DNA of 64,000 bases, taken from the IMG/VR virus record IMGVR_UViG_3300009104_000012, positions 1 through 64,000 of that record, one strand, 5' to 3'. This document shows, piece after piece, positions 28,095-59,176 of the stretch. The notes under the pieces were generated by a model. That model did no database searches. It saw nothing but the letters and a program-made list of their open reading frames with translations, and was not told the origin of the DNA. The first letter of the stretch is position 1. Each line of letters starts with the position of its first letter. This stretch comes from a virus. Both the position numbers and the translations under genes were made by a program.

Positions 28095-29169
28095 TATTAG
28101 TTAATTGAATAGTTGTATCTTCTGTTTGATTATTTCTGTTATAAGAATAAGTACAAGAATCAGAACCGTCTTGGTCTACTAGTAAAGTAAAGTCATAAAT
28201 TGAATCACCTGATACGGTAAGATTTGCTGTATTACTTCCGTTTAATTGTTTTAATTCAACAACTGCTTCACTTGTATAGATATAAACATATGCTGTATTA
28301 CTTCCACCATTTCCATAATATCTAAACACATTACTATTACCACTAGTTACCGTTTTCATATAATTATTATTACCTCTTTGTACCATTCTAACGTGAGAAC
28401 CTGAAACGTCTGGATGAACATCTAAAATATTTGAGTTGCCTATTACGTCGTGTACTTGGTAGTTGCCTGTACCCCAAGAAGCCATATGTACTTGATTTGA
28501 ATTACCAATTATATAAACATCTATCGTTGCGCCTTCACTTCCTGAAGTATCTGCAAATTGTCCGTGTGAAGCAACCTGTGGACCAATTGCCTTATTGGAG
28601 TTTGTATTCATACCTTCTGATAAAGTAGGGTGTGAATAAAATTCTACATCATTTGAATCACCAGACATAAGAACATATAAGAAATGACCATCACCTCTAC
28701 TATACATCCAAAAATCATTTGAGTCTCCAACTATATCTAAATCAACATTGGTAAGTTTAACATCATCACTTGTAACCGTATCTATTTCTACTATGTTTGA
28801 ACCACCTGTAATATCAATATCATAATAATGTCCTTCAGCACCAACATCATCTAAATCTACTCTTAATATATTAGAATTACCTGTAGCTGTATAATCAAAG
28901 GTCATATCCTCACCCATAAATGATTTATGGTTGCTATCGGTTACTAGATTTGAATTACCTATTTGTTTAATGATAAGAGTTAAGTTGTTACCTCTCATAT
29001 TGAAAGTAGATGAGGTACTTATACCAACTTTATTACCAGAGCCATCTTGCTTGATGTAAATTGATCCGTCTGTGTCTTGATTGTCTTGTTTTATCCAAAC
29101 AGAATTACCTGCCCAACAATTAGTTGTTAGGGTTACCAGAGTCACTAGAATCATTATCAGTTTTTTCAT
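28084..29169 (-). CDS. curlin-like repeat protein (CsgA/CsgB-like)
   Basis: Signal peptide; repeated IxQxGxxN / xGxSN motifs (IKQDGSGN, IKQIGNSN, VQRGNNN); C-terminal Cys pair. Confidence 0.78.
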   Translation of the reverse strand: MKKLIMILVTLVTLTTNCWAGNSVWIKQDNQDTDGSIYIKQDGSGNKVGISTSSTFNMRGNNLTLIIKQIGNSNLVTDSNHKSFMGEDMTFDYTATGNSNILRVDLDDVGAEGHYYDIDITGGSNIVEIDTVTSDDVKLTNVDLDIVGDSNDFWMYSRGDGHFLYVLMSGDSNDVEFYSHPTLSEGMNTNSNKAIGPQVASHGQFADTSGSEGATIDVYIIGNSNQVHMASWGTGNYQVHDVIGNSNILDVHPDVSGSHVRMVQRGNNNYMKTVTSGNSNVFRYYGNGGSNTAYVYIYTSEAVVELKQLNGSNTANLTVSGDSIYDFTLLVDQDGSDSCTYSYNRNNQTEDTTIQLTNSGC

Positions 29170-30160
29170 CTTGCTCCTCCTTTTCGTCTGTATCTATTTG
29201 GTTCCATTCTGCTTCGTTAGCTTCTTCTTTTAATTTCTCGTCTGCTATTTCATTTTCTTGTTTAAGTTTCTTTTCTTCAAGGAATTCTTCATAAGTCTTT
29301 TCTTTTTTAGGTCCTGTATCGTGTATATTAAGTTCAATAGCATTCATTTCTACAACTGGTTTATCTTCAACAGCAATCTCTTCTATTGCCAGTTCTTTAT
29401 ATCTCCACAATCCTTTATCAACACCTTCTTTTATTAATTCTACTACACCTTTTTCAATTGCTTTTCTTACTGCAAAGGTAACTGGTTCATTTCTAGCAAC
29501 ACCAGCTTCTACTTCTAATAACATTGTATCAGCGTCAAAGTATTTAAATATATCTGCACCTCTTGATGTAGAAAATATAGTCTTCTCTATTGTAGTTGTT
29601 ATAACTACTTCACCACTTTGTACATTAACCAATCTTAATATAATAGTAACCACATCTTGTCTGTATTGTGCGTGGTTTTGTATACCTAAAATTCTTGCAC
29701 CAACACCACCTGATTTAATATCAGAATCATACCCAACTATACCACCTGTGATATATGCACCAGCAAATAGTAATGCTGGTAAAGGTTCAGCACCTTCTCC
29801 ATCTACTTGTTGTCTTGTAGACCTAATTAATTTTCTTTCTTGTAAGAGACTTGGTAAACTTGCTCTTTCAACAACTCTAAACCATTTGCCATCGCCTGCG
29901 TCTTGTAATGCCTTAATTAATAATTGATAAGACCCTTGCGTTACCGCTGTACTCATTGAAGCAAAGTCTCCACCTGGTTTCTTTTGACCTGTTAAGTCAA
30001 CGAAATCATAAACAGCAATGACTATTGGGTCGCCTTCTAGTTGCTCAACTTTTTCTAAATCTTTATAAGCAACATCAGCTATTCTTACATCAAAGTCTGG
30101 TTTGCCAGCACAACTAACTAATAATAAAGTTAGTAAAAATATTCCTATGTACTTAAACAT
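29120..30160 (-). CDS. csgG: curli secretion pore CsgG
   Basis: Lipobox LVSC, AVYDFVDLTGQKKP, STAVTQG, WFRVVER..L..LLQERKLIR, NEPV. Confidence 0.93.
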   Translation of the reverse strand: MFKYIGIFLLTLLLVSCAGKPDFDVRIADVAYKDLEKVEQLEGDPIVIAVYDFVDLTGQKKPGGDFASMSTAVTQGSYQLLIKALQDAGDGKWFRVVERASLPSLLQERKLIRSTRQQVDGEGAEPLPALLFAGAYITGGIVGYDSDIKSGGVGARILGIQNHAQYRQDVVTIILRLVNVQSGEVVITTTIEKTIFSTSRGADIFKYFDADTMLLEVEAGVARNEPVTFAVRKAIEKGVVELIKEGVDKGLWRYKELAIEEIAVEDKPVVEMNAIELNIHDTGPKKEKTYEEFLEEKKLKQENEIADEKLKEEANEAEWNQIDTDEKEEQDEKTDNDSSDSGNPNN

Positions 30161-30636
30161 TACGAATTGTCTTCCTTCGGCATAGTAAATGTTGTTACCG
30201 TACCATCTGATTCTGTAACCGTTACCGTAACCGTATCATTTGTTCCTGTAGTTGTTGTTGCCCAAGTTACCACTTCACCACCTACTGGTGATGTAAATGT
30301 TCCAGAATCTTGTTGTAATCCATCTGTACCAAATACGTTATCAGTAATTTGTTTAGCAAGAGCTGTGTAAAATCTTGCTTCTAAATTTGCTTTGAATTTT
30401 GCTATAGCTGTTGCTTTAGCTTCTGCTTTTGCTTTTTCAGCGTCAGCTTTTTCAGCAGCTTTAATTGCGTCTTTTCTAGTCTTCTCTATATTCTCTATAG
30501 TTAAATAGTGTGATGATTTACCAACTCCTGAAAATGATGGACTATGGAATTTAAAATCTAATTCACTAGCGTTTACGCTACCATTATATAAAACAAAACC
30601 TACTAAAACTGACAGAAAAATGGCGATTCTGATCAT
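30160..30636 (-). CDS. csgF: curli assembly component CsgF
   Basis: Signal peptide, then ASELDFKFHSPSFSG, the CsgF N-terminal pore-binding motif. Confidence 0.85.
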   Translation of the reverse strand: MIRIAIFLSVLVGFVLYNGSVNASELDFKFHSPSFSGVGKSSHYLTIENIEKTRKDAIKAAEKADAEKAKAEAKATAIAKFKANLEARFYTALAKQITDNVFGTDGLQQDSGTFTSPVGGEVVTWATTTTGTNDTVTVTVTESDGTVTTFTMPKEDNS

Positions 30637-30692: not shown

Positions 30693-32324
30693 ATGATTGC
30701 TATTATTAAAAAAGTAGGCTGGGCTTGGTTAACTATTGCTGTACTTCTATTTTTATATTTAGGAAATCCTACGTTAATGGAGACATCAAGACTTTCCACG
30801 TTTGATTCTTACCAAAAAATAGGTAAGCACTATGATTCCAAAAGCCTAATATTGCTGGATATTTCAGACGCAGCCTTGGAAAAGCAAGGTCAATGGCCTT
30901 GGAAAAGGGACCAATTAGGTCGTGTAGTGGTCAATGCATATAAAAATGGAGCTGCTCTTGTAGTTATGCAAGTAGTCTTCCCACATAAAGATAGATTAGG
31001 TGGTGATGAAATGTTCCTTAAAATGATTACAAAATATCCTGTAATATTAACCGAAACAAATGAAGTTAAAAATCTACAAAGTATTTCCAGAAAATCTTTA
31101 GGTGTAGGTAATGTAGATGTACCTGTAGATATAGACGGTACTATAAGAAAATTACCTGTAAATAATTCCATACCCCAGGTTATATTAAAAGTTATAAACT
31201 TTCCAAAAATAGAACAAGATAATATATGGGTAGATTTTAGATACCATATTCCTAGAATAGATTATACTGATAATGATTGGTCAGGTATGAAAGGTAAAAT
31301 AGTATTCATTGGTACCACATTTAAAGGTTCAACTTTTGTAACCACACCTAATGGATTAAAAAACACTCACGAAATTATGGCAATCAGTACAGAAAATTTA
31401 CTATCAGGAAAATTTATTGATAGACCTGATTGGTTACCTTACGCTGAAGGTGTTTTTATTTTACTTGCTTTATTATTTTTTGTACTAGTTATTCCTAGAT
31501 GTGGTGTAATGTGGTCTTTTCTATGGTATGCTGGATTTATATTTGATATTTTTCTTGGTGCTGGATTTCTATGGTGGAAATACCAATACATAGCTGATTG
31601 GTTTAGTCCTCTATTACTAGGGTCTATACTATGGGCTCACTTAACATATAATAATTATTCAATAGAAAATAAATTAAGACTACAAATTAAAAAACAATTT
31701 GAACATTACTTGGCACCTGCAATGGTACAAAGACTAATGGATAATCCATCACTATTAAAATTAGGTGGTGAAAGAAGAAAATTAACATTTCTATTTTCAG
31801 ACATAAGAGGTTTCACTCCTATATCGGAGAAATTTAAAAATTCTCCTGAAAGACTAACTCGTTATGTTAATAGATTTTTAACTGCAATGACAACCATTAT
31901 ATTACAACACGGTGGTACTATTGATAAGTATATGGGTGATTGTATTATGGCCTTCTGGAACGCACCCCTAGATGTTAAGGAACACAGGAAACTGGCTGTT
32001 CAATGTGCTATAGCAATGAGAAGAAAACTTAAATTAATGAACATAAACAAAGAGTTTATGCCACCTATCAACATTGGTATTGGTATTAATACTGGTGAAT
32101 GTCTTGTTGGAAATATGGGGTCTAAACAAAGATTTGATTATTCAGTTATAGGTGACGCTGTAAATCTAGCAAGTAGATTGGAAGGTGTTAGTAAAAATTA
32201 CAACACCACTATTATAATCGGTGAAGATACTAGGGAGGCTTTAGAAGGTTTTAAATTCTATAAACTTGATGATGTAAAAGTCAAAGGCAAAACTGAAAAG
32301 ATTACCATTTATTCTGTTAGATAA
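30693..32324 (+). CDS. CHASE2-domain class III adenylate cyclase
   Basis: N-terminal TM, GQWPWKR CHASE2 motif, 3 TMs, FSDIRGFT, IDKYMGD, FDYSVIGDAVNLASRLE. Confidence 0.93.
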   Translation: MIAIIKKVGWAWLTIAVLLFLYLGNPTLMETSRLSTFDSYQKIGKHYDSKSLILLDISDAALEKQGQWPWKRDQLGRVVVNAYKNGAALVVMQVVFPHKDRLGGDEMFLKMITKYPVILTETNEVKNLQSISRKSLGVGNVDVPVDIDGTIRKLPVNNSIPQVILKVINFPKIEQDNIWVDFRYHIPRIDYTDNDWSGMKGKIVFIGTTFKGSTFVTTPNGLKNTHEIMAISTENLLSGKFIDRPDWLPYAEGVFILLALLFFVLVIPRCGVMWSFLWYAGFIFDIFLGAGFLWWKYQYIADWFSPLLLGSILWAHLTYNNYSIENKLRLQIKKQFEHYLAPAMVQRLMDNPSLLKLGGERRKLTFLFSDIRGFTPISEKFKNSPERLTRYVNRFLTAMTTIILQHGGTIDKYMGDCIMAFWNAPLDVKEHRKLAVQCAIAMRRKLKLMNINKEFMPPINIGIGINTGECLVGNMGSKQRFDYSVIGDAVNLASRLEGVSKNYNTTIIIGEDTREALEGFKFYKLDDVKVKGKTEKITIYSVR

Positions 32325-38328: not shown

Positions 38329-38353
38329 CTTTAGTGTTGATTTCTATAGACTA

Positions 38354-38695: not shown

Positions 38696-38703
38696 TATTT
38701 ATA
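38696..38703 (-). promoter_or_regulatory. T4 late promoter
   Basis: TATAAATA, intergenic. Confidence 0.75.
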
Positions 38704-38801: not shown

Positions 38802-39317
38802 TTAGTACCCTAACCTTTGTAATTGTCTTATAGTATTTGATGTTGATGTATGGAAAATTGCTATACCACCTTTTGATTTCCATTGGTCTACATTTCTTTT
38901 AAAATCATCTATTAATAAGTTAGGTCTACCAGCAGTCTTGGCATATAATTGTTTTTCTATTCTCTTAACTAAATGTAATCTTGAATTAGGTACACTTAAA
39001 TATCTCATAGCCCATTTAGTTTTACCTGCAATGCAACTAGGGTCTGTAGATGGATCTACATATGCTGATAGTATATGTGGTTGAAAAGGAAGTATCTTTT
39101 GCCATAAAGCTTTACCGTCTCTAGTCCAAGGCATAGTGTCCCAAAAATTAGGATAATTTTTGATTGGTTTCCATTTATCTCTTATTGATTTATAGACCGT
39201 TTTAGGTTCTTTCATCCATTTTGCAATGGGCATACCTGTAGCTCGTTGTGCTTGTGTGATAAAATCACATAACACTCCGTCCATATCACAATAGATTGTT
39301 GGTAAATTGTCCTTCAT
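38802..39317 (-). CDS. HAD-family 5'(3')-nucleotidase/phosphatase
   Basis: YCDMDGVLCDF, ILSA, K, LIDDF...W...GG. Confidence 0.85.
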   Translation of the reverse strand: MKDNLPTIYCDMDGVLCDFITQAQRATGMPIAKWMKEPKTVYKSIRDKWKPIKNYPNFWDTMPWTRDGKALWQKILPFQPHILSAYVDPSTDPSCIAGKTKWAMRYLSVPNSRLHLVKRIEKQLYAKTAGRPNLLIDDFKRNVDQWKSKGGIAIFHTSTSNTIRQLQRLGY

Positions 39318-39334
39318 AAAGTCCTTTATGAAGA

Positions 39335-40603
39335 TTATCGGGAATAATTTATCTTCGGCTCTGTATCTACTTTAGCAGGTTTTCTACCAGTCAAAGTTTT
39401 GGTAACATCTTCGCCTACAATAGGTGGTAATGCAACAACAACTGGTCCATCACTATCTTTTTTTGCTTTTTGGAGTACCGTCTTCGCTTTAGCTACATCT
39501 TTCTTTGCAACATATAATTTTCTAAATCTAAATTCTCCATCTATACCTGCGTCTTTTAAATGATGTAATATATTGCCTTCATAACCTTCATTTACTTTTT
39601 CGTTTAGTTCATTAATTTGGTGTTCTAATGATTCCTTTTTCATCTTATCTTTAAGATGTTTATAAGCAACACCAATAGTTAAAGGCACTTCTCCTGTTTC
39701 TTTATTCGGTTGTGGTTTAACTACCTTATTTTTTTCGTTTTCTATTTTAGTTTTAAGAACATTAACTTGTCCTTGTAAAGTTAAGATTTGTTTTTTTAAT
39801 GCTTCGGGGTCCTCTTGTTTACCTGAATCTGAACCGTCCATCTTATCTCTTTTTAATCTAATCTTTGCAATCTTAACACCAGGTTTATTATCTTTTTTAA
39901 TTGCTGGAACATCTGCTGTAGAAGCTTTTTCTTTTTCATCAGCCTCTTTCATAGAAGGATCATAATGTCCAACTTTGACACCAAAACGTTTTTTCTTTGC
40001 TCTTTTCCAAATACTACCTTTTCTTGAAGCTGTATTTGCACCGTCTCTTTCCTCTATGTCTTGACCTTTAGGTTCGTGTTCTGCTTTTTTGAATTTTTTA
40101 TCGCCGTGTTTACCACCAGAAGCTTTTCGAGCACCCCATATTTCGTCTATTGATTCTGGTATTATTTTAATAGCTTTCATTTTAGAAAGGTTACCTGTCT
40201 TATACCAATCAATCCATTTTTGGGCTTCTTTTTCTGTCTTATAACTACCGTGTACAAATTTACCACCATCTGTTTTAGTAACCTGTACGGTAAATTTTTC
40301 AGTTCTTAATTTTTTAAGGTCTGAACCATCAATCTTATTGTTCTTATTTAAATCAATCTTCTTTTGTTTTGGAGTTAATTCTTCTTTGATACCTTTTTTA
40401 ATCTTAGCGGGGTCTGATTTTTTACCTGCTGGTACCTTTTGAATCTTTCCGCCTTTAGCAAGAAAGTCTTTCATCTGTTTGTCAAATGCTTTTTGTTGGT
40501 CTGGTGTTCTAGCTTCTAATTTAGTATAGATTGGTTGGTTTTTAGCTGCTATAGCTGTAGCCATTTCTTCTACACTACCTGCTTTACTTTTTAAATAACT
40601 CAT
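39335..40603 (-). CDS. Lys-rich putative internal head protein
   Basis: Low complexity, many xxE sites, EF-hand-like DLNKNNKIDGSDL. Confidence 0.65.
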   Translation of the reverse strand: MSYLKSKAGSVEEMATAIAAKNQPIYTKLEARTPDQQKAFDKQMKDFLAKGGKIQKVPAGKKSDPAKIKKGIKEELTPKQKKIDLNKNNKIDGSDLKKLRTEKFTVQVTKTDGGKFVHGSYKTEKEAQKWIDWYKTGNLSKMKAIKIIPESIDEIWGARKASGGKHGDKKFKKAEHEPKGQDIEERDGANTASRKGSIWKRAKKKRFGVKVGHYDPSMKEADEKEKASTADVPAIKKDNKPGVKIAKIRLKRDKMDGSDSGKQEDPEALKKQILTLQGQVNVLKTKIENEKNKVVKPQPNKETGEVPLTIGVAYKHLKDKMKKESLEHQINELNEKVNEGYEGNILHHLKDAGIDGEFRFRKLYVAKKDVAKAKTVLQKAKKDSDGPVVVALPPIVGEDVTKTLTGRKPAKVDTEPKINYSR

Positions 40604-42225
40604 TTTTTTGCCTTATCTCCCCGTTTATGCTGTAGCCATAATCTCTCAAATGTTTTACTAGCATTTTCGTTCTTATATTTATCCTTTTTAACTGGTGTAC
40701 CATCTTTGTCTTTGTAATGTGGTTTATGACCTTTATTTTTCATAGACCAAGCAAGAGCATATGGATTATCAATCTTTGGATTATCTTTCATAGCTCTAAC
40801 AGAACCTTCCCAACCTGGAGGAGAAACTTCCTTAATTACTTCTTCTTTTTTCATATTATAATCTGCGTCACCATCATCTATAATTTTATATCTTAAATCT
40901 TTTGCCATTGCCTTAACTTGTTTGTCAGAATCTTGTCCTCTATTACCTGCTGTAATTTTTAAAGTACCAATCTTTGAACCTGTTTTGATAACAAACATTC
41001 TTTGATTGTTTCCTTTAAGAGTAAAAAATCTGTCTCTTCCTCCAGCAGTTTCACCACTAAATGTTCCATATTTTTTAAGTGTATTCATATCTACAGGTGG
41101 ATTAAAATTAATATCTGTACTTTCTGTTAGTTTTTGTTCAACTGGTGATGTATTTCTACCCATTTTATCAATCTTAAAACCTTTAGCTCTTAATTTCTGT
41201 GCCTTGTTTTGAATATCTTGTAATGAAGAACCGTCTTCAAAGCCTGCGTGTTTGCCATACTTATCACTATAAGATAATCTGAAAGGTGCTTTAGCTTCTC
41301 TTAATGTAAATTCTTCTTTAGCAAGTTTTGATAACACATTTATATTTGCCTGACTTATTGCAATCTTTGTAGGTTCATCATAACCTTTAATCATTTTTCT
41401 AATCGCTGGCGTTACGTCACTTGGTTTTTTAGTTGACCATAATTTTTTAATATTGGCAATCTGAACATCATTTAATTTACTTCTTAAATAATCATCACCA
41501 ATATCCTCTTGTACTTGGTCTCTTGTCTCTTCTGTTTCTACACCTGCAATAAAGAAAGCTGAGTGTTCACCATAACTTTCGGTAACTGGCATTTTCTTTT
41601 GTATCATACGTGATAAAGCAAGACCAGATATGAAAGGTATCTTTTTCTTTCTTAATCTGTTCAAAGCACTATCAGGTATTCTATCAAAGATTTTTCTTAA
41701 TTTGTTTGCGTTAGGTAATGAAATAGTTTTACCTTTCATATCAGCATATGATTTTGCCAATGCGTCTAGTTGAGCGTCTGTAAATTCCATTATGTCTTGT
41801 TCAAAGGCTTCAATTAAAGAATTTTCTAATTCAGTTTCTTCATTAGCTCTCTTCAATGCATTAGCAACACTTGGATGTTTTGCTAAACCTTTTGCAATCT
41901 TTTCAATAGCTGCATAAGCACCTGAATAATTACCGCCTTTGTATCTAGGGTCATTTAATATACCAAATGCCATCTTGATTTGTTTATCAGTATATTCTAC
42001 TATAGTTCCTTCACCTAGTATATCTTTAACCGTTGATACTGATAATTTTAATTTCTTTGCTATCTCAGCAGCACTAGCACCATCATCACGCATTGTTGCT
42101 ATGTCTTTCATTCTGCCTTCTTCAACAGCAGCTGCTTCTTTTAGAGCTAGACCTAAATTGCCTAAACCTTTTTCGTTTCTTTTAGCTACTTGCGCTAAAG
42201 CGTCTGACATTCTTAATAAAGCCAT
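40600..42225 (-). CDS. modular putative internal head protein
   Basis: Short repeated modules bounded by (I/L/V)xE sites; EVSPPGWEG...NPYALAW motif. Confidence 0.65.
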   Translation of the reverse strand: MALLRMSDALAQVAKRNEKGLGNLGLALKEAAAVEEGRMKDIATMRDDGASAAEIAKKLKLSVSTVKDILGEGTIVEYTDKQIKMAFGILNDPRYKGGNYSGAYAAIEKIAKGLAKHPSVANALKRANEETELENSLIEAFEQDIMEFTDAQLDALAKSYADMKGKTISLPNANKLRKIFDRIPDSALNRLRKKKIPFISGLALSRMIQKKMPVTESYGEHSAFFIAGVETEETRDQVQEDIGDDYLRSKLNDVQIANIKKLWSTKKPSDVTPAIRKMIKGYDEPTKIAISQANINVLSKLAKEEFTLREAKAPFRLSYSDKYGKHAGFEDGSSLQDIQNKAQKLRAKGFKIDKMGRNTSPVEQKLTESTDINFNPPVDMNTLKKYGTFSGETAGGRDRFFTLKGNNQRMFVIKTGSKIGTLKITAGNRGQDSDKQVKAMAKDLRYKIIDDGDADYNMKKEEVIKEVSPPGWEGSVRAMKDNPKIDNPYALAWSMKNKGHKPHYKDKDGTPVKKDKYKNENASKTFERLWLQHKRGDKAKK

Positions 42226-42623
42226 TAGCCAAATATCCTTCCGATTCTTTGTCTGTATAAGTGTCCACCGTGAGTATCATAATTACGTTTTAAATTAGTC
42301 ATATAAGTTCTGTCTAATACATTACCTCTAGGACCTTTAGCTGGCGCATTAAAACTGGCTGGTTTTAAAACATCTCCAGTATTCTTATCTATAAAACAAT
42401 TGATACTTCGTCTGCTACCTTTTTCCACATTATAAATTTTAATGTATTTCGGGCCTACTGATTTATCTAAATCGTTTTTTTGACGTGCGTATAAGTCTTT
42501 AAAAGTAGGGTGATTTTTATATTTCTCCCTACCTATTTTCATATACTCTTCTGCGCCTTTGATAACTGCAGCTTGATTAACCTGCTCATTAACAAGTTCT
42601 CTAATTTGTTTATATGTTTTCAT
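42225..42623 (-). CDS. conserved phage protein with capsid-targeting-like N-terminus
   Basis: MKTYKQIRELVNE; GPKYIKI...FIDKNTGDVLKPASFNAPAKGPRGN. Confidence 0.75.
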   Translation of the reverse strand: MKTYKQIRELVNEQVNQAAVIKGAEEYMKIGREKYKNHPTFKDLYARQKNDLDKSVGPKYIKIYNVEKGSRRSINCFIDKNTGDVLKPASFNAPAKGPRGNVLDRTYMTNLKRNYDTHGGHLYRQRIGRIFG

Positions 42624-44776
42624 TATTTTACAAATTCTTTGAAGCTCTTAAATCTCTCATCATCTTCAGCTAAATCTTCGTGCATACGCATTGTTGCGTC
42701 CTCCAATTTAACTTTCCATTCTTCGCCGTATCTTTTCTTATATTTATCTATTGTAGACTCTGAAGCAGACCAATCATCAATATCCTCTTTGGTTATTTCT
42801 TTTTTAGCCTCTGGAGCCTGTTCAGCTCTCTTCTTGGTATCTACAGGTTTTTCACTTGGTGTCTCACCTGGTGTAATCTCTTTAGTATGGTTGGCATAAT
42901 CAGCACCAATTTCATACGCTTCATCTTGTTCTTCTGAACCAACCAAATCTTTTTTAAATTGGTCTAAAGATTTTTTATCTTCGTTCATTTCTTTATCCTT
43001 TATCTTGTCTGATACCGCTTCAAAACCATAATCTACATTAAGGTTATATTCTCTCAATATTGCTTCTTTATCAGCAGCTACTGGCATACAATCCCAAATC
43101 CAACATTTGTGTAAGTTTTCATTGGTGTCTTCTATCAGTACATAATTTGTACCTCTTCTCTTGACTATGCCTTGTAAATTTTCTGTTATACTTTTAACGG
43201 TATCGTTTATGTTAAATAATTGTTCTCTTATGTAAAGGTCTCTAACTTGTTTTGCTTCAAACTGACTTCTTAAATTTACCATTGGTTTGACACCTTTTTT
43301 ACCTGTAACGTGTATCATACCACCAGCTGTGTCAGCAGCCAAGTTCATACCTTTTCTGACCGATTTAAATAGTAATTCACCACTTCCAAATCCACGAGGT
43401 AAACCTCTTTTGAAGGTAGCAAAATCGTTTTGAGCAGCAGCACTTCTCATCTTGCTTGCACTCATACCCATTGCCCCCTCAGCGTCTGGATCTCTTTCAC
43501 CAGCTGACACTACGTTAATATTCTTAAAATTATAATATCCGTGTCTGCTTTGTACATCATTATATTTTTTTAAAATGGTATCAAACTCTCTTACTCGGTC
43601 ACTACCAACCACCATTGTTATATCGGCGTAATTTTGTTTGTATAGTTTTGTTGCTATATCCAAAATCATATTGGTAGTATTAATCTCTATGTCTCTAGCA
43701 TATCTAGGAAACATCTTTTTCATATAGCTTAATTTCTCACTAGGACTTAATGGGTTCTTTTTATTATCTTCTGACCTACTAATATAAATTTTATGTGTGT
43801 CAGCTCTAATCCCTTTAACTTTATTAATAAGCTTTTCGTGTCCTATTGTCGGAGGGTTAAATCTACCAAAAGTAAACGCCATATGCTTTTCAGTAATAAC
43901 TTCTTCCTTGATTTTACCTAATGATTTAATCTCATCATCTGTTACCTTACCATCATCTAATATCTCTTTAAGTTTCTTATAAAGTTTTTGATAATGATAT
44001 TTTTCTAGGTATTTGTAAATAACATTTTTAGGAAGTTTGTGTTTCTTACCAAATTTTCTTATTTCTTCTGGTGACATATCATTACCGAAGGCAGCTTGTC
44101 TGTCTTCTAACGATTTATCTCCTATTTTTACTAATATTTTAATACTCTCTTCAATCTCTTCTAACTTTTCATTTATTAATTCTTGCAAGTCTGCAACATC
44201 ACTTGGTTTCAAACCTGTAAGTTCTTGATAGTCAATCAGGTCTCTTTGTAATTCTCCTGTAACCACATCAATTTCTTGTACCTTTTTTTGGAATTCTTTT
44301 TCGTATTGTGTTTTATCAAACTCATCACCTGTTGGTTTTCTTATCCAATCATTTGCTTTAATGTCAAATATACCATCAGCCATATTATCATTTTTCTTTT
44401 TTAATTCTGGATCGGTAATAACATAATAGTTAATTGGATGTTTTGTACCTGGTACCAATTTGCCATTTATATTCTTTAAAGTTTTGGCAATTCTTAATCT
44501 TACTTCGTCTCTCTTTGCCTTTGGTACACCAAATAATACATTGATATCCAAATCAGCGTCATCACGGTATCTCTTTGTAAGAATAGAACCAATTAAACTA
44601 TGCTTAATTACAGGTGCCTCATCATTGAATTTTTTAAGCTGATCATTAATCATATCCAAAACTACCTTTTTAAGTTTTGGATTTGGAGTATCAGCTTTAT
44701 CAAATACACCTTGCGAGTATGTTTTTCTAGGTATATCAATAATTGATTCTTCTAAATGTTTTTTAAATTGTTTCAT
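42623..44776 (-). CDS. fusion of a Pol-beta-type nucleotidyltransferase and an HxGH cytidyltransferase-like domain
   Basis: IGSILT...DADLD (GS...DxD); TFGRFNPPTIGH, MVVGSDR, SAGERDPD, MSASKMR. Confidence 0.8.
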   Translation of the reverse strand: MKQFKKHLEESIIDIPRKTYSQGVFDKADTPNPKLKKVVLDMINDQLKKFNDEAPVIKHSLIGSILTKRYRDDADLDINVLFGVPKAKRDEVRLRIAKTLKNINGKLVPGTKHPINYYVITDPELKKKNDNMADGIFDIKANDWIRKPTGDEFDKTQYEKEFQKKVQEIDVVTGELQRDLIDYQELTGLKPSDVADLQELINEKLEEIEESIKILVKIGDKSLEDRQAAFGNDMSPEEIRKFGKKHKLPKNVIYKYLEKYHYQKLYKKLKEILDDGKVTDDEIKSLGKIKEEVITEKHMAFTFGRFNPPTIGHEKLINKVKGIRADTHKIYISRSEDNKKNPLSPSEKLSYMKKMFPRYARDIEINTTNMILDIATKLYKQNYADITMVVGSDRVREFDTILKKYNDVQSRHGYYNFKNINVVSAGERDPDAEGAMGMSASKMRSAAAQNDFATFKRGLPRGFGSGELLFKSVRKGMNLAADTAGGMIHVTGKKGVKPMVNLRSQFEAKQVRDLYIREQLFNINDTVKSITENLQGIVKRRGTNYVLIEDTNENLHKCWIWDCMPVAADKEAILREYNLNVDYGFEAVSDKIKDKEMNEDKKSLDQFKKDLVGSEEQDEAYEIGADYANHTKEITPGETPSEKPVDTKKRAEQAPEAKKEITKEDIDDWSASESTIDKYKKRYGEEWKVKLEDATMRMHEDLAEDDERFKSFKEFVK

Positions 44777-45453
44777 CTTTTTCTACTTGCCATTTCTCTT
44801 GCTATCCATCTTTTTGCAATATGACTTTGTATAGGTGCTTTCATTTTCTGTCTCACTATTTTGGATGCTTTACTCATTGTTAAAGTTACCAATTCAGATT
44901 CAGATTTATTATTATCTACAATAATAAAATTTGACATACCAAATAATCTTTGAAATTTACCCATATTACTTTGTACCGTTTCCCAAGATTTTACTAAATA
45001 AAATTCTGGTACTTGTCTGCTTCTAGTTTTGTTTCTTTCTTTTGCCACATCTAAACTTGTATTAACAAATATCATATAACAATCATAACCTAATTGTTTT
45101 AATAAAGATACTTGAAGGTGTATAATACTATAATCTCTACCCGTTGCGTCAACTACCATACCTAATCTACCTTGTACATAGGAATCTATTTGTCTTTTTG
45201 TTAATGCTTTAGCTCTACCTCGAATCATATCTCTAAAATATTGTTCACTATCTGGCATAGATAAAGATAAATTAACTTGTTTTAACATTCTTTCAAAATG
45301 TACATCTGAATTTACTAACTTCATTCCTAAACCAGCAGTAACCGAATTGGTTACAAAAGTTTTACCTGAACCAGGTCCACCTGCCAGAAAAAAAGCTTTA
45401 AATATTCCTGGATCGTAAACACCTTCTGTTAATATCTGACTATAACTTTTCAT
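44773..45453 (-). CDS. P-loop kinase (PNK/zeta-like)
   Basis: FLAGGPGSGKT Walker A, VNSD, VVDATG, ERNKTRSR lid. Confidence 0.8.
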   Translation of the reverse strand: MKSYSQILTEGVYDPGIFKAFFLAGGPGSGKTFVTNSVTAGLGMKLVNSDVHFERMLKQVNLSLSMPDSEQYFRDMIRGRAKALTKRQIDSYVQGRLGMVVDATGRDYSIIHLQVSLLKQLGYDCYMIFVNTSLDVAKERNKTRSRQVPEFYLVKSWETVQSNMGKFQRLFGMSNFIIVDNNKSESELVTLTMSKASKIVRQKMKAPIQSHIAKRWIAREMASRKR

Positions 45454-46683
45454 TTACCATCCTTTAGGCAATGTAAAATTTGCCCTACTAAAATCTAATC
45501 TATCTACCAACTTAACAGCACCTGCAACTCTATCAACTGCAACATATCCTTCAGGAGAGGTTACTCTATAACCATCTTTTGTTCTTATAAAATGTCCAAT
45601 ACTGGATATCTGTGCCAATTTTTGTATCAATGTGTTCTTACAATTTGCTAAACTTATATGACTTGCTATTGCAAAATACAATGATGACTTATTCCTATCT
45701 ATAAATTTTAAACCATCTGCTTTTGCTTTAATATATTGTGATTTACCTTTATCAGTTTTTCTTGAGTCTATTTCTTGTTGCAACATATTTTCATAGTAAT
45801 CTCTAAACATTTCTTGCATTTGTTTTACTTTACCCATATCACCTTTTGTATTTTTAATATAATAATTAAAGAAACTTTTTAATCTAAAACCTACTGATAA
45901 AGGTTTACTTGAATTCTTTTCCATTTCATTTAATATTGCTGTGGCTTTATATAAAGAACCTTCTGCCATTCTTATTTGTGCGTCAAATCTATTTAAATCT
46001 CCTTTACTAAATGTTGAGGTACCAGATGTATCTTTATAAGCAGCGTCAGCTAAAAATATAGAAGATGTACTTGACCTGCCTGATATGGTTCCATAACCAG
46101 CAGATAATCTATTCATACTTTTACCACTATAAGATGTATGAAAAACTATTCCTATTTTTGCTCTTCTTATTCGTCTGCCAAGGTCCGAACCAGCTGGTAC
46201 TGCATATGTAATTGTATTAGGTGTAAAAGTTATCATACTTTCACCATTAATTTTGTCTCCTGATAAATCACCTTTAGTAAATAATAAATCACCTTGTAAG
46301 ATACCTTTGATACCTAACTTTGGTAATTCTCTTAAACATACTTGTAATTTATTAACCAGGGGGCCATTATGGTTTCTACGGATATCTCCTGTAGAATAAT
46401 TGATTTTTGGATTTACATTGAAGACTGATTTGGTACCGACAAAGAATTTGCCGTTTTCTGGATTGATTCCACATATTACAGCAGGCGCACCGTCCCACTT
46501 AACAGACATATTAAGTTTTCCACCTGTATTACCTGCTAGCATATCTCTTACTGCTTTTAAGAAATTTACAGCATTATCACCGCCTTTGGAACCTCTATTG
46601 ATTATGTCATCTTCTAGGTGTTCTAGGTGGGTGTTCGTAGTTTTTGTGAAAAACCCTTTGAAACTAAAAAATTCGTTTAACAT
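45454..46683 (-). CDS. DUF6267-like protein with nucleic-acid ligase motifs
   Basis: NTHLEHLED, VKWDGAP (KxDG), LQGDLLF, PEGYV, VKLVDR. Confidence 0.7.
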   Translation of the reverse strand: MLNEFFSFKGFFTKTTNTHLEHLEDDIINRGSKGGDNAVNFLKAVRDMLAGNTGGKLNMSVKWDGAPAVICGINPENGKFFVGTKSVFNVNPKINYSTGDIRRNHNGPLVNKLQVCLRELPKLGIKGILQGDLLFTKGDLSGDKINGESMITFTPNTITYAVPAGSDLGRRIRRAKIGIVFHTSYSGKSMNRLSAGYGTISGRSSTSSIFLADAAYKDTSGTSTFSKGDLNRFDAQIRMAEGSLYKATAILNEMEKNSSKPLSVGFRLKSFFNYYIKNTKGDMGKVKQMQEMFRDYYENMLQQEIDSRKTDKGKSQYIKAKADGLKFIDRNKSSLYFAIASHISLANCKNTLIQKLAQISSIGHFIRTKDGYRVTSPEGYVAVDRVAGAVKLVDRLDFSRANFTLPKGW

Positions 46684-46741: not shown

Positions 46742-46749
46742 TATTTATA
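46742..46749 (-). promoter_or_regulatory. T4 late promoter
   Basis: TATAAATA upstream of the 46683-35142 late block. Confidence 0.75.
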
Positions 46750-47895
46750 CTAAAATATTTTTATAAAAGGGCCATTCAAATTACTAAATTCTTTTTTTGC
46801 TCCATAGTATAAAGTTTCCAACCATTCTTCAAATTTTCTTTTTCGGTCTATTTTCATATATAAATCAATAGTTCTTAAAGCGTGTAGTTTTGAGTATATT
46901 CTACCTAGTGTATTTCTATCTTTTTCAAAGTTTCTTAAACCTCTTTTTAAGTTTTGTTCAAAACTAGATTTTGCTGTGCCATATGTTAAAGGAGCGTCCC
47001 AATTAACTTTTTGTCCTGCAATAGTTTTATTTTTTATTCTATCATAAAAATTTGCCCAAAAATCTATTTGTTGATTAGTAAATTTACCTGATATTGTTAT
47101 CATATTATCTTTTACTACCGAAGGAGGCATTTCAAGATTTAATTTAGATAGAAAAGGTCTTAAAGCTGCTACGGAAGATTTACCTAATTTTGCACCACCA
47201 CTTTTTGGTGTTATGTCAGTTTGAGGACCAGTTGTTGGTTGAGAGTATCTAAAACTTCTAACTTGTAAAGCATATTCTTTATCGCCTGCAAAAAATCTTA
47301 ATGAAAATTCTCCTGTATCAAATAGAGGTGGTTTCTCCATATCTAAATCACAATACAAACTATTTGCTTTTAATTTAAATTTTAATTCTTTTTTATTACC
47401 TAAATTTGCCTCTTCTACTCTTGCTACTTTATCAGTTTTATTTAAACCTTTTAGTGAAATAGGTATCATTGATTTATTAAGTAATCTTTTTTGCATAAGT
47501 TTATTTAATTTTTCCAACTTTGCGTCATTATCTTCACCACCAGATAACATTTTTTTAATTTCTTTTTCTACTTTTAACTCTTCACCTTTTTTAACCATCA
47601 CAATATCCATAGGATTCCATTTATCTTTAGTAGAAACTCCCATATCCCTAGCCGCTTTTTCTAAAAAAGGCATAATACCATTATCTCTACTATAAAGATA
47701 ACCTTTGTGATTACCCAAATATTGTTTTAATGCTTTTGCTTGTAATTGAAAATAGTAATACCATAACGCTGGCATATTTGGATATGCTTTTTTCTCCACG
47801 AATGCTATCGTTGGTTCTTTACCTTTTTCTATTAATTGCTCGAAGAAAACTCTTGAACCGTTTTCTTGCATTTTTGTATCTTTTGCTGAAGCCAT
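46750..47895 (-). CDS. hypothetical protein, possible PD-(D/E)xK nuclease
   Basis: QE...DKWNPMDI...IPISLK arrangement; C-terminal GPFIKIF. Confidence 0.6.
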   Translation of the reverse strand: MASAKDTKMQENGSRVFFEQLIEKGKEPTIAFVEKKAYPNMPALWYYYFQLQAKALKQYLGNHKGYLYSRDNGIMPFLEKAARDMGVSTKDKWNPMDIVMVKKGEELKVEKEIKKMLSGGEDNDAKLEKLNKLMQKRLLNKSMIPISLKGLNKTDKVARVEEANLGNKKELKFKLKANSLYCDLDMEKPPLFDTGEFSLRFFAGDKEYALQVRSFRYSQPTTGPQTDITPKSGGAKLGKSSVAALRPFLSKLNLEMPPSVVKDNMITISGKFTNQQIDFWANFYDRIKNKTIAGQKVNWDAPLTYGTAKSSFEQNLKRGLRNFEKDRNTLGRIYSKLHALRTIDLYMKIDRKRKFEEWLETLYYGAKKEFSNLNGPFIKIF

Positions 47896-47900
47896 ACTAC

Positions 47901-47931
47901 TATTTATATACTAGTAGTTATCGTTAGTCAA
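47901..47931 (-). promoter_or_regulatory. overlapping late (TATAAATA) and sigma70-like promoter
   Basis: TATAAATA at 47901-47908; TTGACT-N17-TATAAA. Confidence 0.6.
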
Positions 47932-54675: not shown

Positions 54676-55218
54676 TCATAATTCATTCCCCCAATTATCC
54701 CAACCATCTACTTGTTGTCGGGCAAATAGTTCTATTCTTGGCAGATCACCTGCCAACTCTATAATTCTTGACCTAACCTCATCTGGTTTTCTACTATGTT
54801 CTCTTCGTTCAGCAACCACTAATCTATCTACATTGGTACCAACTCTATGTGGTTTTCCTTTTGTTGCCAAGATACATATTTCAGGATTGGCTCTTGTCCA
54901 TAATCCTGTACCTTTAAAATAATAATTCTTAATTCTATTCTTGTTAGTTTTTATCCAATAAAATCCTACCGTCTTATATTTAAAACCCCATTTCTCAACA
55001 ATTGGTATTTGTTTATGTAATAATGGGTCTGTACACCACATAAACAATATACAATCTTTATCTGCAATATCTCCAACTGGTAAATCTTCAATCTCTTTCA
55101 TTGTCATTGTTGGATAATGGTGTATAGGATTTGTTTGTGCCTTATCATTATTCCAATTCTGAAAATGCCAAGGAGGATCGGCATAAATTATATTATATTT
55201 TTTCTTACTTAATTCCAA
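54676..55218 (-). CDS. MT-A70 family N6-adenine DNA methyltransferase
   Basis: IYADPPW, HYPTM, LFMW, WGFKYKT, HSRKP, IELFAR, WGNE. Confidence 0.92.
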   Translation of the reverse strand: MELSKKKYNIIYADPPWHFQNWNNDKAQTNPIHHYPTMTMKEIEDLPVGDIADKDCILFMWCTDPLLHKQIPIVEKWGFKYKTVGFYWIKTNKNRIKNYYFKGTGLWTRANPEICILATKGKPHRVGTNVDRLVVAERREHSRKPDEVRSRIIELAGDLPRIELFARQQVDGWDNWGNEL

Positions 55219-57683
55219 AAGTCCTCCAAACTCGCCACTCGTTCATACTTCCAACCAATAGAGTTTAATATAAATCTCAATGGGTCTAAAAATGTTTTTT
55301 CAAATTGAGTTGTATAATCTATATACTCTTGCAACTTAAATTCTCTAGGTAATTTTGTAAGATAACTAATAACACCATACTTAAATGGATTAGGTTCTTT
55401 TAATAATATAAACTTAATCTTATCTCCTTCTTGTATCAATGGATATTTAGCAGTAAGTTTAAGTTGTTTTAAATAATGATTGTATATTAAAGACCCTTTA
55501 ACGTGTATTGGACAACTCTTCTGAAATATATTACTAGCGTCTGAATATTTTTTAAGATTATTACAAGACCTTGGAAAAGCAATCGCTTCTGGTGGTAGTC
55601 CTTCAAATTCATTTTTAAACTTATCAACAAAATTAATTAAATCTGGTTCTTCCTTCTTCATAATAATATCAATTGCTTCTTTAATTCTTTTTCTACAAAT
55701 TGCTGGTGTTGAAGATTTAACTGCCTCAATTCCCATAATTTTCATTTTAGGTTCAGCATATCTAACGCCTTCACTATCATATACATTTAACATATATCTT
55801 TTCTTTGATACCCATATACCTTTATCAGCAATAACTTCTCTTGCCATTTCCATTTTTTGGTCAAAAGCATTTGTATATTCTGCAAGTTCTTTATAACACT
55901 TATCAATATATGGTTCAAATTGTTTTTCACACGCCTTGTTTAAAAATTCAACTACTTGGTCTTTTGATTTATTACCACATATTTTTTCTACTAACTTATC
56001 TAAACACACATAAATTGAATCTGTATCAGACGCAACTATATAATCGTGGTCATCTGTTTTTAATAAATGATTTAAATAATCGTTCATCTTATTCTCAATA
56101 AATTTAATAACATACTGACCTCCAGTAGTTATCGCTGTCGCTTGTCTTACATCATAGTATCTGAAAAATTGGTTACCAATAGCACCATAGGCACTATTCA
56201 ATGCAATCTTTCTTGACCATTGTATATTATGGAATCTACTTACCTTTTTTAATAAAGACTTCTCTTTTGTTTTTTCATATTCTTGTCTTGCTTTAATTTC
56301 TTTTTGTTTAAATTTAACTCGTTCTTTATACATTGTCTCCATCATATTAGCAAGAAAACCTTGACTATCGGTTTTAAACAACGCACCATTTGGAGTTATA
56401 CACGCACCTTCTTTTTTAAGATAACTTAAATCTGATTTTTTATTTAATAAATTACTTACAGAAACTCCATTACCTTTCATACCAATAATTTTTTCAGGTG
56501 AAATATTATATTGCATAATTAAATGTGGATACAAACTATTTAAATCAAATGACACTACCCACTTATGCATACCAACCTGTGGATCTTTTACATATGCACC
56601 AATATATTTTGTATCTTTACTATGTTCTTCTCTAGGTGGTACAGCAATCTTATTTTTTAATAAGTGATTATAAATTAAAGTATCCCAAGTTCTAACTTGA
56701 CTAAACACATCTGAATAATTTACTTTAGCGTCATACGCCATAGTTAAGACTAGTTCAATTAAACCAAGTTTATCTTCTAGTCTATCCACTATTTCAACAT
56801 CTTGAATATTATAATCTATAAAAGATTGTAAATCTTTAGTGTACCATTCTTTAAATGTATCATAAGGGTTATCATCTTTCTTTTCGCCTAGTTCTACTTG
56901 ACCAATCCAATCCAATCTATAACTCTCTTGTCTTGTTGGAATATATTTTGTATATAAATCCAAATAATCTAACATTGCAATACCAACCACATTGTATACC
57001 GTTTGTGGTCTACCTCTTACTTCAACCGTTTCTTGTTCAACTATATTCCAAGGTGATAATTTTCTTATTACTTTTTCATCTGTTAATAATTTAATTCTAT
57101 TGCATAGATATGGTAAATCAAAAAACTTTGTATTCCAACCTGTAATAACATCTGGATAATTTTTCATCCAGAATTTCATAAACTCCATTATTAAAACTTT
57201 TTCATTACTACATTTAATATAGGTTACATCTTTTCTATCTGTTTTAAAATCACCAATACCCCAAGTTATAATCTGTTTGTTAGAGGCATTTTTAACCGTA
57301 ATACATATTAACTCTTCTATAGGATTTTGTACATCTGGAAATCCATCTTCACAGGTTGTTTCTATATCTAATGTAAAAATGGAAATAAATTCTTTAGACC
57401 ATTCAATTGTTTCTGGATATTCAGCTGAAATATATTGATATTGAAATCTATCTAAACCAAATAATGGAGCACCACTATATGATTTTTTAAATTCTCTTGC
57501 TCTTGAAATACTATTAAAGTTTACAGGTTTTAAATTTTGACCTTGTAAAGTTTTCCAATCTCCATTACCTAATACATAAAGAGTTGGATTAAAATCTATC
57601 TTCTCTTGGAAAGACTTGTTTCTTTCAATACCACGGACTAGTAATTTACCTCTATGTTCAATAACTGATTTATAAAAATTCAC
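55209..57683 (-). CDS. 43: family B DNA polymerase gp43
   Basis: DIET exonuclease motif, FDLNSLYP, KIALNSAYG, ASDTDS, KKRY. Confidence 0.97.
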   Translation of the reverse strand: MNFYKSVIEHRGKLLVRGIERNKSFQEKIDFNPTLYVLGNGDWKTLQGQNLKPVNFNSISRAREFKKSYSGAPLFGLDRFQYQYISAEYPETIEWSKEFISIFTLDIETTCEDGFPDVQNPIEELICITVKNASNKQIITWGIGDFKTDRKDVTYIKCSNEKVLIMEFMKFWMKNYPDVITGWNTKFFDLPYLCNRIKLLTDEKVIRKLSPWNIVEQETVEVRGRPQTVYNVVGIAMLDYLDLYTKYIPTRQESYRLDWIGQVELGEKKDDNPYDTFKEWYTKDLQSFIDYNIQDVEIVDRLEDKLGLIELVLTMAYDAKVNYSDVFSQVRTWDTLIYNHLLKNKIAVPPREEHSKDTKYIGAYVKDPQVGMHKWVVSFDLNSLYPHLIMQYNISPEKIIGMKGNGVSVSNLLNKKSDLSYLKKEGACITPNGALFKTDSQGFLANMMETMYKERVKFKQKEIKARQEYEKTKEKSLLKKVSRFHNIQWSRKIALNSAYGAIGNQFFRYYDVRQATAITTGGQYVIKFIENKMNDYLNHLLKTDDHDYIVASDTDSIYVCLDKLVEKICGNKSKDQVVEFLNKACEKQFEPYIDKCYKELAEYTNAFDQKMEMAREVIADKGIWVSKKRYMLNVYDSEGVRYAEPKMKIMGIEAVKSSTPAICRKRIKEAIDIIMKKEEPDLINFVDKFKNEFEGLPPEAIAFPRSCNNLKKYSDASNIFQKSCPIHVKGSLIYNHYLKQLKLTAKYPLIQEGDKIKFILLKEPNPFKYGVISYLTKLPREFKLQEYIDYTTQFEKTFLDPLRFILNSIGWKYERVASLEDFWN

Positions 57684-58485
57684 TTAAATTGCCTTCCGCT
57701 TTATACTTTGATATGTTCTTCCTATTATACACCATTTCTTTCGATAAGTCAAATGGCATTTTCTTTGTTTCTTTGTACGAAGAAGTTCCACTCATCCACG
57801 ACTTCACCCACCAAATCAAATCGGTATGTTTTGGGTATTTTAAGTTCCAAGTAACCGTTGACTTTTTTAAATTTTTTCGGTCTTTCGGTGTCATTGGATA
57901 GATATATCTAAATTGTTTACCCTTCACTCGGTTCAATTTTAATTCTTTAAGTTGTTTTGGGTTTGGTCTATGACCGTATTTTAAACCTTCTTTATTTGGT
58001 AATTGTCCTTGTAAAGTTCTAGGGTGTACTTTCTCTCCTGTTTCGGTAACATAAGTATCTGTTATAGAAAATCCACCATATAAAAAATTAGCTGCCTGAT
58101 ATACATAGCCAGGTTTGCCCACAATACCATCTGCCCAAGTATAAAGATATTTAACATCTGTATTTTGTTTTAACCATTTAATTGATAGTGATAGTAATTG
58201 AGATTCAGAATTTCTAGGCATAGAATCATCCATACACATCTTGCCTATTTCTAGGTAATCTTTTGTATCTAATTTTGGAAATAATTTTTGTATAGTATGT
58301 TTTGGTCTTGTACCCCAACCAAAGGTAATAACTCCAACTAATGTATCATATGAATCTACTGGAAACTTTTTGTTTCTTACAAAGCAACCTAGATAATGCT
58401 TAGTGAGTCTCGGCATAACAGCCGAGTAATGGCGTTTAGCAACGAATTCAGCTGCTGTTATTTTGTGTAAAGGTTTTATTATCAT
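57670..58485 (-). CDS. Mom-like DNA adenine-modification protein
   Basis: RHYS, GVITFG, LEIGKMC...PRNSES, TWADG...GYVYQAANFLYGG. Confidence 0.75.
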   Translation of the reverse strand: MIIKPLHKITAAEFVAKRHYSAVMPRLTKHYLGCFVRNKKFPVDSYDTLVGVITFGWGTRPKHTIQKLFPKLDTKDYLEIGKMCMDDSMPRNSESQLLSLSIKWLKQNTDVKYLYTWADGIVGKPGYVYQAANFLYGGFSITDTYVTETGEKVHPRTLQGQLPNKEGLKYGHRPNPKQLKELKLNRVKGKQFRYIYPMTPKDRKNLKKSTVTWNLKYPKHTDLIWWVKSWMSGTSSYKETKKMPFDLSKEMVYNRKNISKYKAEGNLSEFL

Positions 58486-59147: not shown

Positions 59148-59176
59148 ATTATATCATTACTTTAATCTAATGTCAA
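59148..59176 (-). promoter_or_regulatory. sigma70-type promoter upstream of the fdx-mom-43 block
   Basis: TTGACA-N17-TATAAT. Confidence 0.8.

Follow-up and report, generated by a model that had tools for sequence, protein, structure and literature searches.

A block of genes at positions 38,802–46,683 of a 64,000-nucleotide stretch of viral DNA (positions 1 to 64,000 of IMG/VR record IMGVR_UViG_3300009104_000012, here called the window) is, as its promoters indicate, a late operon, and it encodes a DUF6267 protein that, by its modelled fold, is a divergent ligase-superfamily member lacking an OB domain. The conserved core of the block is best read as DUF6267 working with an NMNAT/PPAT-like adenylyltransferase and a PNK/zeta-type kinase. 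We put forward tentatively, as plausible though short of probable, that the block provides a late-made and largely capsid-loaded kit that heals and seals the ends of nucleic acids. Packaging in the window phage, every substrate and the repair role are what we infer from the evidence below. The genes lie where a sequence-only reading of this DNA had placed them, every one on the minus strand, and all the sequence features that it described were found.

The DUF6267 protein (409 amino acids; 45454–46683, minus strand) has PF19782 as its sole Pfam match (E 5e-121) and no significant profile match to the Pfam ligase families DNA_ligase_A_M, RNA_ligase and DNA_ligase_aden; PF01068 and PF09414 have no match anywhere in the record of the window. 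The family is very large: more than 8,000 close homologues were found in metagenomes, and at E <= 0.001 it is matched by 2,685 cluster representatives (50% identity). In 91 representatives of 34–45% identity, the residues H22, K62, D64, G72, P75, F81, Y160, G178, H182, G379, K391 and N402 are invariant, while at least 90% keep G65, Q130-G131-D132, E378, V381, D394 and R395. These positions include motif I (KWDG, residues 62–65, 46489–46500), motif III (QGD, residues 130–132), motif IV (EGYV, residues 378–381, 45541–45552) and motif V (VK, residues 390–391), the single lysine of the last being Lys391 at 45511–45513. A conserved motif IIIa, F-x-PNTITY, occupies residues 153–160. The ordered ligase-superfamily motifs KWDG, QGD, EGYV and VK, which had been pointed out from the letters alone, are therefore located and conserved among the 91 homologues.

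The AlphaFold model of DUF6267 is confident (predicted local distance difference test, pLDDT, 91.6; predicted template modelling score, pTM, 0.89) and has a beta-rich core, a poorly conserved helical insert at residues 227–357 and a disordered stretch at residues 1–14. The sequence-only reading had staked its proposal on a ligase fold, and the model has the ligase-superfamily fold. Both hallmarks of the covalent nucleotidyltransferase superfamily are present, namely the fold and a KxDG motif with invariant lysine followed by motifs III, IIIa, IV and V. The OB fold of ATP-dependent DNA ligases is absent from the model, in which the protein ends about 15 residues past motif V. The nearest solved folds are ATP-dependent RNA ligases, with DNA ligases scoring lower, and the first named matches outside the family in a BFVD structure search are viral RNA ligases. 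The relationship is distant: Foldseek against the PDB returned nothing at E <= 0.001 and ligases only at probability 0.2–0.3, and neither phmmer nor the 91-sequence profile found a ligase among PDB sequences. An hhalign comparison with T4 Rnl1 was non-significant (probability 1.5%), and the same alignment pairs EGYVAV...VKLV of DUF6267 with EGYVAV...FKIK of Rnl1, so that motifs IV and V fall in register. Judged by its conserved residues, DUF6267 is probably an active enzyme.

The late expression of the block is indicated by the T4-type late promoter consensus TATAAATA at 46742–46749 (minus strand), 59 nucleotides 5' of the DUF6267 start. In the window this sequence occurs in 7 copies against 18.2 +/- 4.1 expected, all of them on the coding strand, and in 728 kb of related IMG/VR loci the gene strand has 83 copies and the opposite strand one. 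Such depletion and strand bias (in the window and loci L003–L082) make it a low-background marker of late promoters in this phage group. Among related loci, 31 of 73 DUF6267 genes have a copy in the 150 nucleotides preceding them, mostly at -64 to -76, compared with none of 45 gp41 genes, one of 25 kinase genes and none of 24 genes for the Pol-beta-HxGH protein. Between this promoter and position 38332 there is no minus-strand terminator, the only strong one being an intrinsic terminator with a 15-bp stem at 38332–38298 (minus strand), which closes the late unit 3' of a 95-amino-acid open reading frame. Because a late promoter stands at the head and no terminator intervenes, one late transcript can span the genes from DUF6267 to the phosphatase. 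The block directly follows the replication genes gp43, UvsX and gp41 and lies outside the structural region, a position that calls for some caution. An early or middle gene set of the replication module had been considered from the position after gp41, and it was dropped given the promoter statistics; the earlier description of the block as late is borne out by them.

The gene next to DUF6267 encodes a P-loop kinase of 226 amino acids (44773–45453, minus strand), which by sequence is of the PNK/zeta class, in keeping with the PNK-like kinase recognized before at this place. Its profile matches are AAA_33 (E 2.6e-15), Zeta_toxin (1.7e-8) and, among the PHROGs, 'polynucleotide kinase' (2e-7), and it contains GPGSGKT (P-loop at 45358–45378), VNSD and an arginine-rich lid. 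Its matches to solved proteins are weak and include the tRNA kinase PSTK (E 0.003), shikimate kinase and the kinase domain of Clostridium thermocellum Pnkp (0.08), and in BLASTP against T4 Pnkp only the P-loop aligns. The DxD phosphatase of the HAD type that had been noted downstream in the late block is an NT5C-like protein of 171 amino acids (38802–39317, minus strand) with DMDG at residues 11–14 (39276–39287). It matches phrog_2643 (E 1.6e-24), and nucleotidases are its best matches.

Another protein of the core is a double transferase of 717 amino acids (42623–44776, minus strand), in which a Pol-beta-type nucleotidyltransferase is fused to a (T)xGH adenylyltransferase; its model (pLDDT 77) has four parts. 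The N-terminal part (43901–44776) comprises a leader (44747–44776), a minimal Pol-beta/MNT-type nucleotidyltransferase and a helical region. The Pol-beta signature hG[GS]-x9-13-Dh[DE]h with a third carboxylate is represented by G63-S64, a spacer of ten residues, D75-L-D77 and the invariant D122 (GS...DLD at 44546–44590). The nearest folds of this domain are minimal MNT-type nucleotidyltransferases, with a weak likeness to MntA, and its profile drew only coiled-coil noise from PDB sequences. A CCA-adding or tailing role had been proposed for it and is not supported by these closest folds; no CCA-adding enzyme or poly(A) polymerase is among the structure matches listed for the 717-amino-acid protein, lists that are dominated by the HxGH domain. 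The latter (residues 293–481, 43334–43900) carries FGRFNPPTIGH, with TIGH at 43838–43849, and MSASKMR, and matches CTP_transf_like (E 3.6e-5). NMNAT and PPAT, and not cytidylyltransferases, are nearest to it, and databases probably misname it in calling it a 'cytidyltransferase'; the curated NMNAT and PPAT family models score the protein far below every cut-off. The C-terminal part (42623–43333) holds a KOW/SH3-like barrel at residues ~497–572 and an acidic helical tail modelled with low confidence.

The fusion of both transferases in one protein is thus as the sequence-only reading described it, and so is the view that the Pol-beta domain is extra to the usual cyanophage 'cytidyltransferase'. 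Matches in isolated phages are confined to residues ~281–578, which indicates that the Pol-beta domain is an addition in the uncultured clade nearest the window; it is common there, with 2,552 metagenomic proteins. It is missing from HxGH proteins at loci with more distant DUF6267 genes. The HxGH proteins of cyanophage type have a conserved module of about 40 residues between leader and HxGH domain, GL..(D/A)GHG.(W)YD..G..VAKT, seen at six related loci (L044, L050, L052, L062, L064 and L066) and in S-SCSM1 gp281, and absent from the 717-amino-acid protein.

The functional linkage of these enzymes is evident from 80 related loci, where the order is gp41 ... DUF6267, (kinase), (Pol-beta)HxGH, and where DUF6267 and HxGH genes are adjacent in most cases. 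Natural fusions occur as DUF6267-HxGH and HxGH-DUF6267, as kinase-DUF6267 (P0190), as a kinase-PolB-HxGH protein of 913 amino acids at two loci (L009 and L036), and as HxGH-kinase (L073), while at another locus (L077) DUF6267, kinase and NT5C genes are consecutive. In related phages, DUF6267, the kinase and the HxGH enzyme are adjacent or fused in every combination. Fusions in several orders argue for a shared function of at least the kinase, DUF6267, the Pol-beta domain and the HxGH domain. A complex prediction of DUF6267 with the HxGH domain scored 0.00, which weighs neither for nor against binding. In the old record of Synechococcus phage S-PM2 (NC_006820; L002 6983–8762), a DUF6267-HxGH gene is split into p141 and p142, and BFVD contains a fused 591-amino-acid S-PM2 protein that aligns to the DUF6267 model with a TMq of 0.92; a frameshift or an annotation artefact probably accounts for the split.

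Late transcription of DUF6267 would also fit a morphogenetic role without repair, like that of T4 gp63 (RNA ligase 1), which also catalyzes tail-fibre attachment and whose gene rnlA is labelled 'RNA ligase and tail fiber protein attachment catalyst' in the T4 record. We consider this very improbable, since the invariant catalytic lysine and nucleotide-binding motifs point to enzymatic activity under selection, and the fusions to an adenylyltransferase and a kinase would be left unexplained.

The packaging of the enzymes is suggested by their N-termini. The T4 internal proteins IPII and IPIII begin with MKTYQEFIAE, and similar leaders are found in the window on the kinase (MKSYSQILTE, 45424–45453), the 717-amino-acid protein (MKQFKKHLEE), the DUF7717 protein (MKTYKQIRE), a 142-amino-acid protein (MKRFKEHVKE) and a RimK-like enzyme (MQVPKFKEYITE). 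When the 136 open reading frames of the window were ranked against the T4 leader, the top five were the kinase, the RimK-like enzyme, the 142-amino-acid protein, the DUF7717 protein and the double transferase; internal peptides reach the level of these five 1.5% of the time. In orthologues the leader reads M-[KR]-x-[FY]-x-x-[FY]-[ILV]-x-E with the final glutamate kept, and it stops right before the conserved domain, which begins EGVYDP in the kinase and SIIDIPR in the transferase. The HxGH proteins without Pol-beta have the same leader with a different domain behind it, and the leader is also present on some NT5C orthologues and many DUF6267 orthologues. In both models the leaders are disordered. 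A gp21-type prohead protease is encoded by relatives, one of them a complete genome. Both elements of T4 capsid targeting, the leader and a gp21-type protease, can thus be named for the kinase, the double transferase and the DUF7717 protein, with the protease taken from relatives. The RimK-like ATP-grasp enzyme (59173–60570, minus strand; Pfam RimK, E 2.9e-37) lies between RegA and the polymerase, has a C-terminal Zn_protease-like domain and may be a packaged enzyme too.

Published virion proteomes are consistent with this. S-CREM2 gp154 (PMC10665884) and S-SCSM1 ORF91 (PMC9602691) were detected by mass spectrometry in purified virions, and both are HxGH-domain homologues, at 32% and 42% identity, that start with such leaders (MKNFSSFLTE and MKSFLQFLKE, respectively), gp154 being preceded by TATAAATA. 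Two hypothetical proteins encoded directly downstream of this virion-detected cytidylyltransferase in S-CREM2, gp155 and gp156, are also in the virion proteome (Table 3, PMC10665884). S-CREM2 gp156 (with gp155 at L086 7492–8726) weakly resembles the Pol-beta domain (E 0.012). Searches of the supplement of the S-SCSM1 paper for DUF6267 homologues in virions yielded nothing, and a virion protein encoded upstream of the S-SCSM1 NMNAT, considered as a DUF6267 homologue, was ruled out by BLASTP. We regard the kinase and the double transferase as likely to be packaged, and the ligase-like DUF6267 as an uncertain case. The earlier proposal of a packaged module gains support from the T4-like leaders and the virion-detected HxGH homologues; in the window, the leader of DUF6267 is degenerate and the NT5C-like phosphatase has none.

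The proposed heal-and-seal kit would operate as follows. The kinase and the phosphatase would tidy 5'-OH and 3'-phosphate ends, the Pol-beta-type domain would add or fill in nucleotides, and DUF6267 would self-adenylylate at Lys62 and seal the break in RNA or DNA, with the HxGH enzyme supplying or regenerating an adenylylated cofactor or intermediate. The classes of kinase, phosphatase, Pol-beta-type transferase and ligase map onto end-healing, filling and sealing, and are reminiscent of T4 Pnkp/Rnl1, of Trl1 or of the repair of DNA strand breaks. The likeness of the leaders to the T4 capsid-targeting sequence with its gp21-type h-x-E site makes prohead loading probable; the kinase, the double transferase and the DUF7717 protein would then probably enter the prohead, undergo trimming and be injected together with the genome, and could act ahead of any phage gene expression.

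Several points weigh against this proposal. The window DUF6267 starts with MLNEFFSFKGFFTK, a degenerate leader without the h-x-E site, and the DUF6267 of S-PM2 has no leader, so the sealing enzyme itself may be unpackaged; the NT5C-like phosphatase also lacks one. The authors of the virion proteomes warn that abundant late proteins may merely co-purify (PMC10665884, PMC9602691). The Pol-beta domain resembles MNT enzymes that modify proteins or small molecules and is unlike CCA-adding enzymes, and the kinase is equally similar to zeta-type small-molecule kinases. Furthermore, NT5C-like enzymes are usually mononucleotidases, and to our knowledge the heal-and-seal pathways give an NMNAT/PPAT-like enzyme no role.

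The HxGH enzyme, as the partner that repair leaves unexplained, makes cofactor supply or counter-defence a serious rival. Here, NAD+ or CoA would be rebuilt by the kinase and the HxGH enzyme as infection begins, for instance to counter defences that deplete NAD, and DUF6267 would be an NAD-using or nucleotide-adenylylating enzyme and no repair ligase. Such pairs exist: NadR combines a nicotinamide riboside kinase with an NMNAT, and CoA synthase combines a PPAT with a dephospho-CoA kinase. This possibility appears unlikely to us, since the NMNAT and PPAT family models fall so far below their cut-offs, the kinase has no match to the NadR-type or NRK families, and a ligase fold with a conserved KxDG lysine would have no role unless DUF6267 were NAD-dependent. 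Nampt (PF04095) has no match in the record of the window or in four relatives, one of them complete; with this partner missing, an NARP2-type NAD pathway (Nampt plus NMNAT) was rejected, and the NAD-restoring system that the sequence-only reading offered as an option did not find support.

A different objection is that the leader is common to unrelated proteins, including the RimK-like enzyme, and so the cargo might be a mixed set of injected effectors without a common pathway, DUF6267 acting alone. The T4 internal proteins are a precedent, forming a diverse defence set with the targeting sequence as the only common feature (PMC3012670). The MNT-type transferase would AMPylate a host protein, such as a HEPN RNase, as MntA does, which agrees with the nearest folds of the N-terminal domain; the zeta-like kinase, given its Zeta_toxin match, would modify a host nucleotide sugar or NAD; and the lysine-rich proteins of the block, one with a helix-turn-helix and one SutA-like, would target host DNA or RNA polymerase. 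We doubt this explanation, as the fusions of kinase, DUF6267, Pol-beta and HxGH domains in several orders indicate a shared function.

Two further explanations start from the lack of a recognizable ligase in these phages. Cyanomyoviruses have been reviewed as having no gp30 homologue (PMC2984593), and no ligase of PF01068, PF01653 or PF09414 was found in the full-length records of HTVC008M, S-PM2 and a 177-kb complete relative. DUF6267, whose gene is near gp41, UvsX and gp43, could then be the missing replicative or recombination DNA ligase, replacing T4 gp30 inside the cell, with the neighbouring enzymes unrelated to it. This we hold to be improbable: the late promoter heads DUF6267 and never gp41, many DUF6267 orthologues carry the capsid-targeting-like leader, the OB domain is missing and RNA ligases outscore DNA ligases, and fusions to the HxGH enzyme and the kinase recur. 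Alternatively, DUF6267 would be the missing ligase of the T4-like family of cyanophages and pelagiphages, perhaps NAD+-dependent, within a virion-borne single-strand-break repair kit (DUF6267 with the PNK-like kinase, the HAD phosphatase and the Pol-beta-type transferase) that mends sunlight- or oxidant-damaged genomes at injection. NAD+-dependence would explain the obligatory NMNAT-like partner, and we give this version a rather small chance of being right.

The window comes from a viral contig of 73.9 kb with an estimated completeness of ~40% and a GC content of ~31%, and nearly all its genes are on the minus strand. The source is a T4-like marine myovirus. PHROG and Pfam scans gave the T4 gene order of clamp loader gp44/62, RegA, gp43 polymerase, UvsX and gp41 helicase; the nearest isolate is Pelagibacter phage HTVC008M (Kyanoviridae), with a DUF6267 that is 50% identical, and the gene order of S-PM2 matches the window. 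A megablast search of the block against isolated phages gave no match. The genes 3' of gp41 encode, in order, a phrog_1462 protein, DUF6267, the kinase, the 717-amino-acid protein, DUF7717, two lysine-rich proteins and the NT5C-like phosphatase, minus strand throughout and mostly overlapping or abutting. The phrog_1462 protein (381 amino acids; 46750–47895, minus strand), a companion of DUF6267 in some relatives, has its own TATAAATA at 47901–47908, and the 95-amino-acid open reading frame likewise has its own copy of this late consensus, at 38696–38703. The DUF7717 protein has 132 amino acids (42225–42623, minus strand). The first lysine-rich protein (541 amino acids; 40600–42225, minus strand) has an N-terminal helix-turn-helix that is sigma-region-4-like, and the second (422 amino acids; 39335–40603, minus strand) has a borderline match to the SutA RNAP-binding domain (29.0 bits versus a cut-off of 29.3); both (39335–42225) may be injected proteins that bind DNA or RNA polymerase.

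Other genes of the window are worth recording. A Mom-like DNA modification protein (57670–58485, minus strand; phrog_1384, E 3e-41) overlaps the gp43 gene from upstream, and an open reading frame of 180 amino acids (54676–55218, minus strand), with the N-terminus MELSKKKYNIIYADPPWHF and a DPPW motif of the sort typical of N6-adenine methyltransferases, overlaps the end of the polymerase gene. At 25902–30636 (minus strand), four consecutive proteins have N-termini like signal peptides or lipoproteins, for example MKKLIMILVTLVTL and a lipobox-like LLVSCAG, and the sole sizeable plus-strand gene (30693–32324) adjoins this run.

In the T4-like phages of SAR11 and of marine cyanobacteria, which are among the ocean's most abundant viruses, the genes of this block are near-core. 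The assignment would give an enzymatic identity to DUF6267, a domain of unknown function whose name occurs in no paper of the literature searched, and it bears on the old puzzle of marine T4-like phages without a recognizable ligase. It also offers a reason why 'cytidyltransferase/NMNAT' proteins recur in purified cyanophage virions. If the capsid loading is true, the T4 internal-protein route in marine phages would carry whole enzyme pathways, beyond small inhibitors. Each of the folds is already known; new relative to the literature searched are the ligase assignment of DUF6267, the finding that it is obligately paired with an NMNAT-like enzyme, and targeting leaders of the T4 type on these enzymes.

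Among known enzymes, DUF6267 is closest to the ATP-dependent RNA ligases without an OB domain, namely Naegleria NgrRnl/Rnl5, Trypanosoma brucei REL1, T4 Rnl2, T4 Rnl1 and the ligase domain of fungal Trl1. It shares with them a predicted nucleotidyltransferase fold whose KxDG lysine is placed on a loop linking two strands, and the order of motifs III, IIIa, IV and V, its EGYV being identical to that of T4 Rnl1. In contrast to them, it has no detectable sequence or profile similarity to the group, a helical domain of 130 residues between motifs IIIa and IV, a conserved N-terminal H-x-x-H-x-E, a single motif V lysine, and the habit of being adjacent or fused to an HxGH adenylyltransferase.

As a set, the block recalls T4 Pnkp with Rnl1 and the Trl1-type kinase-ligases in that a P-loop kinase, an HAD phosphatase and a ligase-fold enzyme occur together; natural kinase-DUF6267 fusions and a locus with the three genes in a row are part of this likeness. 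Unlike in T4, the kinase has only P-loop-level similarity to Pnkp, the phosphatase is NT5C-like and lies four genes off, two extra nucleotidyltransferases are present, and the set is late and probably virion-linked, while that of T4 is early. The T4 analogy drawn by the sequence-only reading holds for the enzyme classes, and the fusions tie DUF6267, the kinase and the HxGH enzyme together; the set could serve in the repair of RNA, in that of DNA or in cofactor supply. With T4 IPI, IPII, IPIII and Alt, the window proteins share a leader of ~10 residues (M-K-x-[FY]-x-x-h-h-x-E) with a gp21-type end site, its presence on unrelated proteins and the late promoters; the T4 internal proteins are small inhibitors, whereas the cargo here would consist of large enzymes, with leaders recognized from their sequence. 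Finally, when compared with NMNATs (archaeal NMNAT, NadM, NadR and NadD), the HxGH domain of the window has its first histidine replaced by threonine, as in PPAT (CoaD), and unlike either NMNAT or PPAT the protein adds a Pol-beta-type domain, a small barrel and an acidic tail.

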